Source: Escherichia coli (lineage in GTDB: Bacteria > Pseudomonadota > Gammaproteobacteria > Enterobacterales > Enterobacteriaceae). Taken from it: DNA of 64,000 nucleotides. Positions 39,501 through 45,500 of this stretch are shown in pieces. The position numbers are program-made. Numbering within the stretch: position 1 is the first letter of the stretch; each line of letters opens with the position of its first letter. Location: assembly GCF_044324785.1 (NCBI RefSeq), contig NZ_CP172128.1; one strand, given 5' to 3'.

Positions 39501-42500
39501 CAGGAGCCCGGACAGCAGGAGACAGACCTGTTTTTTCATTTTTTCTCCGTTGGCATATAGGAAAGATGTAAACGCCCGGCTGACTGTGAGAGGACTGCCC
39601 GCCAGGCAGTCTGGGCCTCTGTGAGACGAAGGGCATCAGCGAAGGTCATATCGCGTACATGGAGTGAGACGGGCAGGGGAAGACGCACGCCGCTGTAACT
39701 GAACTGTTGTCCGCGCAGACGGGCCAGCTCGCTCAGGAGCTCCAGAGCATCGCCTTCCCAGTCAAAGGAAACCCGCCCGCTGTGAGCCTGCAGGCTGCCT
39801 CCGGGCTGGCGGGAAGGCAGGGCTGCAGAATACGTGCCCTGCTCCCACAACTGATACTGTGCATGTCGTGTGACAGCGACTTCAGAAGCTGCACCGTACT
39901 GCCTGGCCGGTGCGGTATTATCCGGGGGAAGATGACAGCCGCTCAGACAGAGAATGGCAACTCCCCCTGCAAGGGTGATACGTTTTTTTTGCATGGTTTT
40001 ATCCGGAAAATAATGAACAGGACTGGCGGTGAGTGGCCAGAAGAGCGGAAACGAGCAGATTCAGGTCAGAAGCCCCGGGCGTCCCGGGGCGTGATAATCA
40101 GAAGGTGAACTGTAACTGAGCAATGGCACCGTAGTTGTTGTCGGTGCCCACGAGGCCGGCGACATCAATGTGAATCACATCAAACGGTGAGAGCCCAATC
40201 CCGGCAGTGAATGCACTGCCGTTGTTGCTGGCCAGATTCTGGCGGTAACCGGTACGTAACTGTGCCCATTTCCAGGCATTAAACTCAGCACCAACGGCGG
40301 CAAACTGACGTTTGCTGTCTGATGTGAAGCCGCTGGCCGGGGTCAGATCCACATCCAGTGCCGTGGTGAACATGTCGTTGTGCCATGATACGCCGGTCGT
40401 TACCTGCGGACGGATCCTGAAGGTCTCGCTGACACCATTCACTTCTTTGGTTTCAATACTGCGGGGGAGCAGGTTCTGTGCGACCAGTCCCAGCGTCCAG
40501 TTGTCATCCAGGTCCATGCTGGCGCCGATGTCGGCGTTGATGCCATTTTTCGTGTTGTGGTAGCGGTCACCTTTGAATGCGCTGCTGTCATAATTTTTGA
40601 CCAGCACGTTGTAGTTGAACAGGTCAACACGCTGGAATTTTGGTGTGAAGCCCAGTGACCATTTTTGTCCGGCGGTCTCCAGTTCGGTGGCCAGCGCAAT
40701 GCCCACATCAGTGACCAGTGCGGCACGGGCAAATGCCTGAGAGGTCAGTCGGTTTTTGTCCACATTCTGACCGTTGCTGTTTGCAATGCTTTCCAGATAG
40801 TTCAGGTCTGCATCACTGACCTTACCGTCAACGCTGACAGTACCGAAGGTTTTTAGCATCAGGGCTGCAGAGAGAGTATCACCGGGAAGGGCTGCCACAG
40901 CGGAAGCGCCCACCTGTGCGTCAGCATGCGTGTGACGGAAGTCCTGAAGTTGCGCCTTCAGACGCGCAGCGGTCTGCGGTACGCCGCTCTGTGCGTCGAC
41001 GGCACGCTCAAAGGCTTTCCAGTCATCACTGATTTTATCGGCGTTGTCGGTGATATTACCCGGGTCGGACAATTGTGCCCCGACGGACGGAAGAAGAAGA
41101 CTGAAGTCATCTTTTGCACCGGATTTTGTCAGCAGTGCCGGGTTTGCCAGTGGGGCCACACCATAGTGAGAGGAGGCAACCCCCGTTCCTCCCATCGCAT
41201 CATTGCGGGCTTCAAAATATGACGTTGCTGCAGTCGAATTAAAGGAAAATAAAACGGCAGACGCGATGAGAGTACGGGTAATATGCTTTTTCATCATCAT
41301 TTCAGTTTCCTGTATTGAGGTATTTTGGGTATAACAACAGAGGGCACGGCTGTTCCATTAAAAACAGTTGGTGTATTATTCCGGTTTATTGCTCAGTATT
41401 ATTACCAGGGGGATAACGGAACCCTGAATAACGCAGTGGGTAATATTTTTCCTGTTATCAGATATTCTGCCTGTGCCGGAGTGAGTGTTACGGCGCGAAC
41501 AGGGATATCCGGAGATATTTTTCGGGCCATCTGAAACCAGCCTTCTTTTTCTATATCCATTCTGACCGGATATAACGAAAGTACCGGATAAATAATGGTG
41601 TTATTAATTTCTTTTTTCTGCCTGAGCAGAACGCCGCAATATTCTCCGGAATGCGTTCCGGCAAACGGAAAACCATGCCAGAGAATAATGTCCATATTCT
41701 CGCGGGCTGAAATAATCCTGCAGAATATCTCCTGTGTGGCTGGCCAGTCTCCCGGACGATATAGTGGATAATGCACCCTGCCGTTCAGCCATTCCGGACT
41801 GAGATAAAACCAGTCAGCCAGTGCTGCAAGAATCTCCCCGGTCAGATAGTCAGTGAGTCTGTCCGGCTCCCGGAAGACGGCAGGGCGGATATTCCAGGGG
41901 GCCAGTAATGCAGCCATCGTTGTTGCGCTGATATCATGTGCCTGCATGATGTGCTCCATCCTGCTGAGAAGACGGCGGACGATGTTATCTGCAGGAAGAA
42001 ACATTTCACTTAACGCGTCTTCGACCAGGATACGCGTCAGGTCAGAGACGGAAAGAGAAAGCTGTTCGCTCATGATACCAAGGGCATCCCTGACTCCCTG
42101 CGGATAACGAACCTGCAGGGGTGTGGACTGCAACTGGCGGTTATTGAGCAGAGCTTCGCTAATCCGGGCCCTGTCAATGGAGAGCATCATGCGGGCAGCA
42201 ATGCCTGTGCTGTTGGGTTTCATTTCACCTCCGTGCGGTTCATATGTTAAGTCTAAAGAGCGTGTTTACTGAACGGAAACGAGTTATTTCGATCGTTATG
42301 ATCGAGTGTGTTTCAAGAGTGCTTTTAACTCTGTTTTAAGCGTGAATGAAAAGGATTCGGACAGGACGCGATTTAGTATGCCGCTGGTCTGGCATTATGC
42401 TGCAGAGCAGACGGAGTCAGGAGATTGAAAGTATTTCGTTATATAATCTTTTCCTTTTCGGGATGAAATCAACGAGGTTCGTATGAAAATTAAACAGCAT

Positions 42501-45500
42501 AAAGAAAAACTGGAGATTATAAGGGATATTATTCGAGAGACGCTGTTGGGTAATGCTGCTCTTATTGTTCTGGCAGCCATGGTTCCGGTTGTACTGGTGA
42601 AACCATGGGATTCGATGACATTTATTTTTATGGGGGCCGTGTGTGTTTCTTTTGCAGTCATTCTGTTTTGGCTGGTTTATATAGTTTGTTTGTATATAGG
42701 AACGCTTGTAAAGAATATTTTTATAAGGATTTTTGCTTTTTCTATTTGGGCCCTTTCTGCTGAGGGGGCAATTATTTATAACATGATAAAGATATTATCA
42801 TAGAAAAGCTGTTTATATATTGGCTCTATGTAAAAAGAATGGTACCACTGCCAGAGTCCCCGTCGTTATTTTTATGCGTTGGGGCCATGAATGTTTATTT
42901 GGCATCCCTTATCTCGCCCATCAGCAGGCGGATATGCAGCCAGGTGTCATGATCCAGAACAGGTGATGGTGTTACCATGCAAGCACAGTGCCCGATGGCG
43001 AGCGTATCAAGGAAGCGTTTTGCATCGTTGGCACTTTCATATTCACCAGTATGGATCAACATCCACCTTTGCCCCAACGCTGATTCGGTGTGAATTGGTT
43101 GCGAGAATGCGATTGTGTAAACGTCTTCAATTGTAACGATACGATTATTATCCGCAGTGGCTGCATGGGAGGATAAGTGTTTCATAAAGGGTCTCATAGC
43201 GTTAATTTTGATCAAAAATTATTTGTTCAGGAGGAGGATATGAAAATACTGTTCGCTTTTGTCATGAACTGGCTGTTTGTTAACGGACAAATCATGACCC
43301 GTTCATCAATGTTTGCGGGTAGCTCGCCTGGTGTGGGGACGCGTTCACCCCGCTGAGCAGCCTGGGCCAGTGCGCGCAGCAACAATACGCTGGCGTGAGA
43401 TATTGCCAGTTCCCGGGTTTCAGCACGGCTTTCAAGGTCGAAATCGTGCAGTGTCACAATGAACACTCCGTTTCTGTTTCTGACAGTTGCAGGGTAGGGA
43501 ACAAAATAAGGGGAAATTTTGCTGGTCTGTTTACGCCTTGCATCGAGTTTACTGACCAGGTGATATGCCCGGAGGTGTGTGTACCGTTTCAACATGTTCA
43601 GTGAGCGGTGACCGGAAATGGCTGCAATCTCCATAACGTTCAGTGTGCCGAGCTCGAACAGACGGCTGATGGCCTCATGGCGTAGATCGTGAAAATGCAG
43701 ATTTTCTATTTTCAGATCCAGAAGAGCGGTACGCCAGGCGCTTTTGAAACCGGACGAGGTGTAATTGAACACATTGCCGTTTATCTGTTGTGGCAGAATT
43801 TGCAGGTAGTTACGTGCTTTCCGGGAGAGTGGTACGTCGCGTGGTGAGCCATTTTTCGTTTCAGGAAGATGCGCCACGCCGTGCTGCAAATCGATGTGTT
43901 CCCAGCGTAATGAGAGAATTTCTCCCTGGCGCATTGCTGTTTCCAGAGCCAGATGGAAGATAACGTAGAGCTGCGGATTTTTGTCCCTGAAATAGCGGGA
44001 AAGGCGGCGTTCTTCACCAGAAGTCAGTCGGCGGTCGCGGCCATTACTGATTTTCGGTTTTCGGACCAGTTCAACAGGATTCATACGGCATGTTCCCCAT
44101 TCCACACGGGCGATATTGAATAATGATGATAAAAGGGCAAGTTCAAGACGGACGGTATTTCCGGTGATTTGACGCCCTGTTCGTGGGTTAATTTGAGCTA
44201 AACGCTGATCCCGGTAACCGGCGATATCAATGGTAGTGATTTCATCCATATAGCGCTCGGCCATAGGGTGACGTTTAATCACATTGACGCGATAAAACTC
44301 CTGCAGATGACCTTTTTTATGGACGGAAACGGTTTTCAAGTATTTGTCCAGCGCCCGGTTGAGAGTCATTTTGCGAATTTTGATTTTTCGAAACATATCT
44401 GCCTTCCACGATAAAAACAGGGAAGGTAGGAATAGTGAAACGGAAATGCAATATCGCCGTGCCAATCCGGTTCGTGGAAAAATGCAGGAAAAGGCGATAT
44501 TGAAATCGTCAAAGTAACAGCATCAAAACTCCGCTGGCCTGGTGCTACTGCCACCTGCCCAATGGGTAAGAAGGTGATCGGGGGTGGTGCAGAATGCAGC
44601 TCTGGAATTGGCTTTATCTGGCTTGTCCGTTCAATACCTGTAAACAATAATGCCTGGTATGGCTTTTGCGATACGACAGAACACATCATTGGAAAAATAA
44701 CTGTACATGCCATTTGCCAATGACAAAGTGATTTACTGGCAAACCACAATGTAACTACATTTCCCCGTCAGATCGTTCCTGTTTGTACCGCCGTGAAAAT
44801 TGTATTCATCGTAGTAACCACACTTCACAATCCTGTTCGAATCATATGTCGCAACAGAACCTGCGAAGTAATTTGGCTTCCAGCCATGCGGGTTTTCAGC
44901 ATTGCTGACGCTCCAGGTACACTGGCTGGCAGAAAAACCAGACGGCAAAGGTAGTCGTTCTCCATTTGCGATTTTTCCTGTCAGAACAGTGCTACCTGAT
45001 ACCCTAATCCACGAACCGGATTGGCACGGAGGCCAGTGCCAATCCGGTTCGTGGAAGGGTAACAAAGAAAAGGAACATTTCACTGTTTACGGAACGAGTG
45101 GATGTGGACATACAGTGTCCTATGCAGTGTGTCCGAGTGGTAGTACTTTGGTTTCAGGCGGATATCAATTAACCGCCTGGTCGCAGGACAACCGTAACCC
45201 GTTCAACTCACCGGACTCAACTTATCCCGACTGGGCGAACAATCGCTGGATTGTTGGTGGAACAGGGACCATCACAAGCTGTTTTCGCTCTGTAGCGTTA
45301 TGCGCCAGATGATTTCTGGCACATTGTTTCAACTTCATTACGGTTTAGTTGAATGCGGTGCTACATCTGATATGCATAAACCGAGAACACCCCTGAGCCA
45401 CAAGAGTAGTTTTGGGCCGGATAAGAGGTGATCTGATAAGTTGCGCCAGCAGGGACAGCAAAAGAGATGAATGCTGTCTTCCCATAAGATGGGTTATTAC

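Follow-up and report, generated by a model that had tools for sequence, protein, structure and literature searches.

An ArtA homologue and a putative secretion-ATPase-derived mini-gene between rci and traE of an IncK2/Z plasmid of Escherichia coli

Two small genes between rci and traE

The window analysed here is a stretch of 64,000 nucleotides (nt) of Escherichia coli DNA (contig NZ_CP172128.1, assembly GCF_044324785.1) which belongs to the IncK2/Z type of I-complex plasmids and to the mating pair formation class MPF_I. We looked specifically at two small open reading frames (ORFs), named ORF A and ORF B, located between rci, the gene for the shufflon tyrosine recombinase, and traE. The order along the minus strand is pilV, shufflon, rci, ORF B, traE, traF, traH, traI and traJ, with ORF A lying on the plus strand between ORF B and traE. 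An earlier note on this DNA had reported two uncharacterised genes between rci and a traE-like gene, one of them encoding an AT-rich membrane protein on the opposite strand. Both ORFs are present and are annotated coding sequences in more than 100 plasmid records, where NCBI gives their product as 'hypothetical protein'. Through sequence comparison ORF A is identified as a full-length homologue of the F-plasmid protein ArtA, and ORF B can be linked, transitively but consistently, to a segment of the VirB11/CpaF-type secretion ATPases. We favour a joint reading, with a probability of about 0.6, in which the interval is a variable slot holding two independent small genes, the ArtA-family ORF A and the ATPase-derived mini-protein ORF B. 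The features concerned are as follows.

42483-42803, plus strand: ORF A, an artA-like gene with an ATG start, 106 amino acids (aa), antisense to the tra genes
42442-42477, plus strand: putative expression signals of ORF A, comprising TATAAT at 42442-42447 and a Shine-Dalgarno GAGG at 42474-42477
42895-43185, minus strand: ORF B, 96 aa from the ATG used by the NCBI annotation pipeline (PGAP), following rci after a gap of 41 nt

Assignment of ORF A to the ArtA family

By BLASTP, ORF A aligned with the F-like ArtA of pVir68 at 35% identity over 91 aa (expectation value, E, of 4e-11), and 17 of the 20 residues in the motif KEKLEIIRNIIRESLLGNAA are identical between the two proteins. When the profile of IncK/Z-type sequences was compared by hhalign with a second one, made from F-type and Klebsiella-type ArtA and sharing no member with the first, the two matched with 99.4% probability (E 1.4e-21) across 103 columns. 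When plasmids were searched with ORF A by tblastn, the ArtA gene of about 310 F-type plasmids was recovered at 35% identity over 85% of the query (E 3e-3 database-wide), and besides ArtA the search returned near-identical copies of ORF A. The exact ORF A sequence is labelled 'ArtA' in UniRef. As regards function, the description 'uncharacterised' in the earlier note still applies to both ORFs; ORF A, however, can be named and assigned to a family. Homology searches turned up no orthologue of known function for either ORF.

The ArtA family comprises 128 clusters at 90% identity, and its named organisms are restricted to Escherichia, Shigella and Salmonella, plus one Klebsiella plasmid. Its members range from 104 to 113 aa, and the residues W63, Y71 and W89 are invariant throughout. 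The ArtA-family genes examined have a guanine-cytosine (GC) content of 32-36% in surroundings of about 50%. The gene is placed antisense inside the transfer region in the window and at loci L001, L003, L004 and L013, covering four IncK2/Z or IncI-gamma/K1 contexts, as well as at the F-type loci L002 and L005; at L003, L004 and L013 the artA-like gene stands opposite the tra genes as it does in the window. The F-like plasmids with antisense artA placement are from E. coli and Klebsiella. Neither Pfam nor NCBIfam was found to hold a model of the family, and comparison of the ArtA profile with PDB sequences found nothing.

ArtA of the F plasmid was named in 1989. It is a protein of 104 aa encoded by an 'anti-tra' strand gene between trbA and traQ. 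ORF A is alike in size and in its three-helix hydrophobic build, has a nearly identical N-terminal motif, shares the invariant tryptophan, tyrosine and tryptophan positions and is similarly low in GC (36%, against 34% in F). The resemblance extends to the strand arrangement, as both genes lie opposite to the tra genes, the 5' end pointing towards the start of the following tra gene and the 3' end converging on the preceding small gene. In F-like plasmids the artA start faces traQ and its end adjoins that of trbA or of traF, and in the window the start faces traE and the end converges on ORF B. The two differ in backbone, which is MPF_I (IncK2/Z) for ORF A and MPF_F for F, and in neighbours, with rci/ORF B and traE taking the place of trbA and traQ. 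The position between trbA and traQ, which ORF A does not share, characterises the F locus and not the protein family. The overall identity of about 33% is low because the membrane part has diverged. Insertion mutants of F artA, described by Kathir and Ippen-Ihler in 1991, reportedly showed no transfer defect. In the literature searched, no function is given for F ArtA, ArtA is not mentioned in I-complex plasmids, and the mutant paper of 1991 is the only one cited. ORF A is thus a new member, in a different plasmid backbone, of a known family to which no function has been given.

Coding constraint and predicted structure of ORF A

ORF A agrees with its earlier description as an AT-rich, membrane-type frame of 106 aa, having a GC content of 35.8% (52.5% in the whole window), a grand average of hydropathy (GRAVY) of 1.21 and three predicted helices. 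Between IncK/Z alleles, the ratio of non-synonymous to synonymous substitution rates (dN/dS) is 0.043 in codons 1-27, which signifies strong purifying selection, and 0.37-0.58 in the remaining 79 codons. In the comparison of codons 1-27 with F artA, the proportion of differing synonymous sites (pS) is 0.86, i.e. these sites are saturated, while that of non-synonymous sites (pN) is 0.19. The conserved N-terminal peptide is accordingly encoded by DNA with many synonymous differences between the F and IncK/Z versions. The dN/dS of 0.04 in this N-terminal stretch, together with the 0.37-0.58 of the remainder, marks ORF A as a real, selected protein-coding gene and more than a chance ORF.

Upstream of ORF A, the GAGG motif is located 5 nt ahead of the ATG and the TATAAT is a perfect match to the -10 consensus, at which the promoter of ORF A would lie. 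A similar -10-like element plus AGAGG is found upstream of F artA.

The AlphaFold2 model of ORF A, built with 16 family members, reached a mean predicted local distance difference test score (pLDDT) of 85.7 and a predicted template modelling score (pTM) of 0.69, with helices predicted at residues 2-38, 44-75 and 79-105. Ten of the residues 1-19 are charged, and in the model this charged amphipathic N-terminal part is continuous with the first hydrophobic helix. As the charged amphipathic helix leads straight into the first of three hydrophobic helices, the product is most likely a small inner-membrane protein.

ORF B and its link to secretion ATPases

ORF B had been described earlier as a 106-aa frame lying 12 bp after rci and possibly co-transcribed with it. 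A frame on the same strand as rci does exist, but the length of 106 aa (42895-43215) and the short gap are obtained only with an unverified TTG start, which lies 11-12 nt past the rci stop codon (43227-43229); the frame is bounded by a TAA two codons upstream of this TTG. The ATG chosen by PGAP, giving the shorter product and the wider gap, is preceded by a Shine-Dalgarno-like GAGA/GAGG. Co-transcription with rci is possible, with no terminator-like site found between the two genes, but it is not obligatory, since ORF B persists at L012 and L013 next to a mere remnant of rci and is absent from the rci-bearing locus L004.

Close relatives of ORF B were found only on plasmids of the E. coli group, where they form two main allele types, 58% identical, plus recombinants between them. 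Searches of Pfam and PADLOC (E up to 1) and of NCBIfam and PHROGs returned nothing meaningful for ORF B, and TraE likewise had no PADLOC match at E up to 1. The profile of its alleles, searched against 1.8 billion representative proteins, matched only 15, two of which, once fragments and repeat artefacts were set aside, were informative, namely P0141 (83 aa, E 5.9e-10) and P0145 (106 aa, E 3.7e-4). Three giant repeat proteins (P0132-P0134) that topped this search were discarded as artefacts of many summed weak repeat matches. ORF B and P0141 are 42% identical over 78 aa (E 2e-15). P0141 in turn matched positions 196-258 of the 370 positions of the Pfam model T2SSE (E 6.7e-4; 18.8 bits, below the cut-off of 24.9) and a VirB11-like ATPase (E 2e-8), and P0145 matched the ATPase encoded directly downstream of it (E 2e-7).

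When the profile of the whole ORF B family was searched against PDB, CpaF was the top match (E 5e-4), and after it came a VirB11-like protein, HP0525, PilT and VirB11. Of the nine matches listed at E up to 10, eight were secretion ATPases, and seven of these aligned over the same segment from Walker B to His box. By hhalign, the family profile matched a VirB11-like ATPase with 91% probability (E 9e-7), and the ORF B alleles alone matched it in the same region (E 1.3e-3). These matches point to the Asp-box/Walker-B/His-box segment of the VirB11/CpaF-type secretion ATPases as the counterpart of ORF B.

In the motif correspondence, RIVTIED of ORF B takes the position of the Asp box, LIHTGE that of a Walker B-like motif and IGHCACMVTP that of a His-box-like motif. 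In the other allele the Walker B glutamate is replaced (ILTGN) and the His box lacks the T-x-HA part. The three segments appear to align in the same order as in the VirB11/CpaF/PilT/DotB(TraJ) ATPases (PF00437, T2SSE). ORF B differs from these ATPases in being 96 aa long against 320-500 aa, with no N-terminal domain and no Walker A, in being about 19 residues short between Asp box and Walker B, in its His box of the form GHC(A/G)CMVTP, in scoring below the Pfam threshold and in evolving near-neutrally. A Walker A P-loop (GxxGxGKT/S) was found in no ORF B allele, and the alignments to ATPases begin past the P-loop. Judged by its motifs, ORF B cannot be an ATPase on its own, because it has no P-loop.

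The genes for both informative relatives belong to clusters of the type IV secretion system (T4SS). That of P0141 comes after a TrbI/VirB10 gene, and that of P0145 (L015:1746-2066) runs 11 nt into the start of a T2SSE ATPase gene, with a coupling-protein gene coming after the latter. P0145 has the C-terminal end RLNVILRGKTGKGKT, which matches the Walker A of the downstream ATPase (second high-scoring segment pair, E 6e-4). Because P0145 ends in this Walker A-like sequence, its motif order is permuted relative to the ATPase.

The search for further relatives yielded little. No similarity to ORF B was seen in TrbA of F or in the two other small ORFs found in the slot (181 aa at L007 and 158 aa at L010), and a scan of the genome collection by peptide pattern detected none. 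A scan with a degenerate His-box DNA pattern gave five matches in unrelated taxa, which we attribute to chance. The Serratia marcescens plasmid pE36_2 carries a truncated copy of ORF B (L011:4001-4144), consisting of the N-terminal half at 56% identity, between a relaxase gene and traX of an F-like region; a gene of 334 aa on the opposite strand adjoins it.

The rci-traE interval is a variable slot

The interval is flanked by rci and traE, as the earlier note had it, and the surrounding features are as follows.

45985-47193, minus strand: pilV
43227-44396, minus strand: rci, shufflon tyrosine recombinase (Phage_integrase, E 9e-25), upstream neighbour of ORF B
42804-42894: spacer of 91 nt separating the 3' ends of ORF A and ORF B, which converge here
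42238-42381: conserved block upstream of traE, forming the right-hand edge of the slot, with homology across I-complex plasmids
41402-42223, minus strand: traE (54% identity to R64-type TraE), downstream neighbour, divergent from ORF A

The annotated start of rci at 44396 corresponds to a product of 389 aa, and a TTG at 44465 would extend the ORF to 412 aa. The spacer contains no convincing intrinsic terminator on either strand (folding z-scores of -0.08 and -0.31). The conserved block was matched in 249 records at 87-90% over query positions 9-137 or 9-152, including plasmids that lack rci, ORF A and ORF B, is kept in all the plasmids whose slot is compared below, and is probably the promoter/leader region of traE. 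Elsewhere in the window, Rfam matches above the gathering score comprise the repZ regulatory pseudoknot of the I-complex replicon (63839-63988), two sok-type antitoxin RNAs (13818-13974 and 14538-14695), STAXI (711-868) and AgrB (10539-10628).

The 1-kb block at 42230-43230 is 100% identical to the E. coli plasmid p135-2 (NZ_CP080262.1, IncK2/Z, MPF_I). It occurs at 95% identity or more in 189 plasmid records, of which 76 reach at least 99%, and at least 80% of it is covered in 130 records. The related R64 (IncI1) has the same order of pilV, shufflon and rci followed by traE, traF, traH, traI and traJ; here, as in an IncI-gamma/K1 plasmid, rci and traE are separated by 150 bp without an ORF, whereas the window has about 1 kb with two genes. 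Neither gene is present in R64, and neither belongs to the shufflon or the core tra set, in line with the earlier note, which recognised neither as a shufflon or tra component.

The content of the interval varies from plasmid to plasmid. The window and L003 carry both ORF B and ORF A, and the rci-bearing L004 carries ORF A alone. In the IncK2 locus L007, ORF B is accompanied by a 181-aa ORF (3245-3790, minus strand) with a lipoprotein-like signal (…AAALLSGC), and L010, from an Enterobacter plasmid, has a 158-aa ORF (2827-3303, plus strand). Neither of these other ORFs gave a Pfam match passing the threshold. L012 and L013 retain ORF B and ORF A next to the last ~165 nt of rci. At L008 and L006 a 186-nt fragment of rci is joined to position 42381, and the entire block of about 1 kb with both ORFs is gone. 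The breakpoints of these two independent deletion variants nearly coincide, as L012 and L013 keep the window sequence from 43392 downward and the rci fragment of L008 and L006 ends at 43389, and positions 43389-43392 in rci may be a recombination hot spot.

The arrangement from pilV to traE at L008 and L006 is the same as in plasmid pMS7163B, in which traE directly follows pilV and which still conjugates (PMC10286972). In a TraDIS screen of this plasmid (sequencing of transposon insertion sites), traE and traF were not required (PMC10286972); it is devoid of rci, ORF A and ORF B, so the screen cannot address these genes directly. As an indirect indication of dispensability, related plasmids without the block conjugate, and nothing observed suggests that conjugation needs either ORF A or ORF B.

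Membership of the shufflon is contradicted by the absence of both ORFs from R64 and the IncI-gamma plasmid and by their retention where rci is cut to about 165 nt. Because the slot content varies and both ORFs are kept where rci is no longer intact, they are independent accessory cargo and not parts of the shufflon. The rci-traE interval of IncB/O/K/Z-type plasmids would accordingly be a variable accessory slot, situated at the operon boundary between the pil-shufflon-rci unit and the traE genes.

Weighing the interpretations

Several results weigh against the joint reading. ORF A has no match in Pfam, NCBIfam, PADLOC (E up to 1) or PHROGs, and searches of the literature and of family libraries found neither an experiment nor a curated family that assigns a function to ArtA. 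The consensus promoter scan called no full -35/-10 pair for ORF A, and the fold search with its model against PDB and BFVD returned generic helical bundles only (best E about 0.9, none below 0.8). On the side of ORF B, the PDB search with its alleles alone was empty and ORF B itself has no Pfam T2SSE match at E up to 1, so that the ATPase link is transitive, running via P0141 and P0145. Moreover, ORF B evolves almost neutrally relative to the L007 allele (dN/dS 0.81 overall), from which its 62 differences are spread 20:22:20 over the codon positions; its close variants show 5-7 non-synonymous and 0 synonymous changes; its AlphaFold2 model is unusable (pLDDT 38); and an ORF of its size stays open 16% of the time under simulated random substitution.

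These same properties of ORF B are what one would expect if it were a non-functional relic of a secretion-ATPase gene, carried passively and open only by chance, and its absence from many related plasmids together with the truncated Serratia copy point the same way. We regard this as a serious alternative, though the somewhat less probable one. dN/dS is 1.08, the highest of the segments compared with the L007 allele, in codons 18-64, but falls to 0.35 in codons 1-17 and 0.56 in codons 65-96. Of the 201 plasmids matched by tblastn, 197 have the frame open, and they include alleles that share only 58% identity; the sole indel is in frame. ORF B and P0141, at the identity given above, have common N- and C-terminal boundaries and a common internal deletion relative to the ATPases, which argues for a long-lived mini-gene rather than independent decay, and the Shine-Dalgarno-like sequence ahead of the ATG also speaks against a relic. 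On balance we lean towards ORF B being a weakly constrained or diversifying mini-protein. Its close variants differ by 10 distinct substitutions, every one of them at the first or second codon position and none at the third (chance about 0.02), a pattern for which we have no explanation. Since these substitutions are mostly synonymous in the frame of an 81-aa antisense ORF (plus strand, 42891-43136), this ORF was considered as the 'real' gene under ORF B; it was rejected, as its frame is broken by stops in L003, L012 and L007.

For ORF A, a role as a membrane-damaging toxin held in check by antisense or convergent tra transcription, and serving post-segregational killing, abortive infection or donor control, seems unlikely to us. 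It would suit a small, very hydrophobic three-helix protein encoded by an AT-rich gene with its own start signals, lying antisense to neighbouring transcription with no terminator in between, and many family members (F-type, e.g. P0052) are named 'toxin ArtA' by NCBI. However, no NCBIfam or Pfam model was found under this name, no paper found in the literature search reports toxicity, and the label may stem from confusion with the like-named but unrelated Salmonella toxin ArtA/ArtB. The type I toxin systems of the same plasmid family, hok/sok and pnd, are comparable in their small hydrophobic product and in the scope for antisense transcription, but the ORF A product is twice the usual size, and typical type I toxins do not resemble a protein that is 104-113 aa long and has a conserved cytoplasmic helix. 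Its leader, about 30 nt if the putative TATAAT is the -10 element, has no significant structure, folding no better than shuffled sequences, and no RNA family, antitoxin RNAs included, was detected by Rfam at 42100-43400 with E up to 1. Antisense transcription through read-through is nonetheless conceivable. The gene is also intact on at least 1000 contigs, with no consistent adjacent partner.

Still less probable is that ORF A and ORF B form one two-gene module, be it toxin and antidote or membrane anchor and partner, belonging to rci and the shufflon. The ORFs are adjacent and convergent in the 130 records covering most of the block and are lost together in L008 and L006, but they also occur separately (A only in L004, B only in L007), F-type ArtA adjoins TrbA, which is unrelated to ORF B, and both persist without an intact rci and are missing from R64, the model shufflon plasmid. 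We find it hardly credible that ORF A matters as a transcription unit and not as a protein, insulating the pil-rci operon from the traE operon or serving as an attenuator between them. It does stand where two operons meet, converging with rci/ORF B and diverging from traE, and no terminators were found, yet between F and IncK/Z the N-terminal peptide has been strongly conserved as protein despite saturation of the synonymous sites, and the three-helix architecture with its invariant W63, Y71 and W89 is family-wide.

Under the joint reading of a slot with two independent genes, the N-terminal cytoplasmic helix of ORF A (MKIKQHKEKLEIIRDIIRETLLGNAA), being conserved, charged and amphipathic, would be the probable functional interface, and the membrane part would mainly have to remain hydrophobic. 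Overlapping convergent transcription of ORF A with rci/ORF B is plausible, and because no terminator separates the two, ORF A would likely be expressed reciprocally to read-through from the pil-rci side. ORF A would then act as an accessory factor dispensable for DNA transfer itself. As for ORF B, it might, speculatively, bind to a hexameric secretion ATPase or disturb its working, with TraJ/DotB or PilQ as examples of such a target. A bolder proposal, which as a whole we hold to be improbable, makes ArtA a self-contained 'anti-tra' module, always antisense and shared by MPF_F and MPF_I plasmids, whose helix would target a host or plasmid factor and whose protein would be made only when transcription of the transfer genes is low, and makes ORF B the founder of a new family of P-loop-less VirB11 mimics modulating hexameric secretion ATPases. 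On this view ArtA might serve to switch the donor state, or be a membrane toxin or a factor of the exclusion type.

Implications for ArtA and the I-complex plasmids

A minor curiosity is the ORF B family, in which a secretion-ATPase fragment without a P-loop has stayed open over a large divergence. ORF B appears to be a rare ATPase-derived mini-ORF of doubtful function; should it prove functional, it would be a candidate for regulating or inhibiting the ATPases of T4SS or type IV pili. The rci-traE slot itself provides a variable marker that separates lineages of the IncB/O/K/Z resistance plasmids.

For over 30 years ArtA has stood as an orphan within the F transfer region, and a full-length homologue is now recognised in I-complex plasmids, in the same antisense orientation and alongside an unrelated secretion system. 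This antisense homologue and the purifying selection on its N-terminal part suggest that the ArtA protein, and probably its anti-tra placement too, is selected for itself and is not tied to the biology of the F pilus. The I-complex ArtA thereby narrows the hypotheses about this family and offers a second genetic system in which they may be tested.

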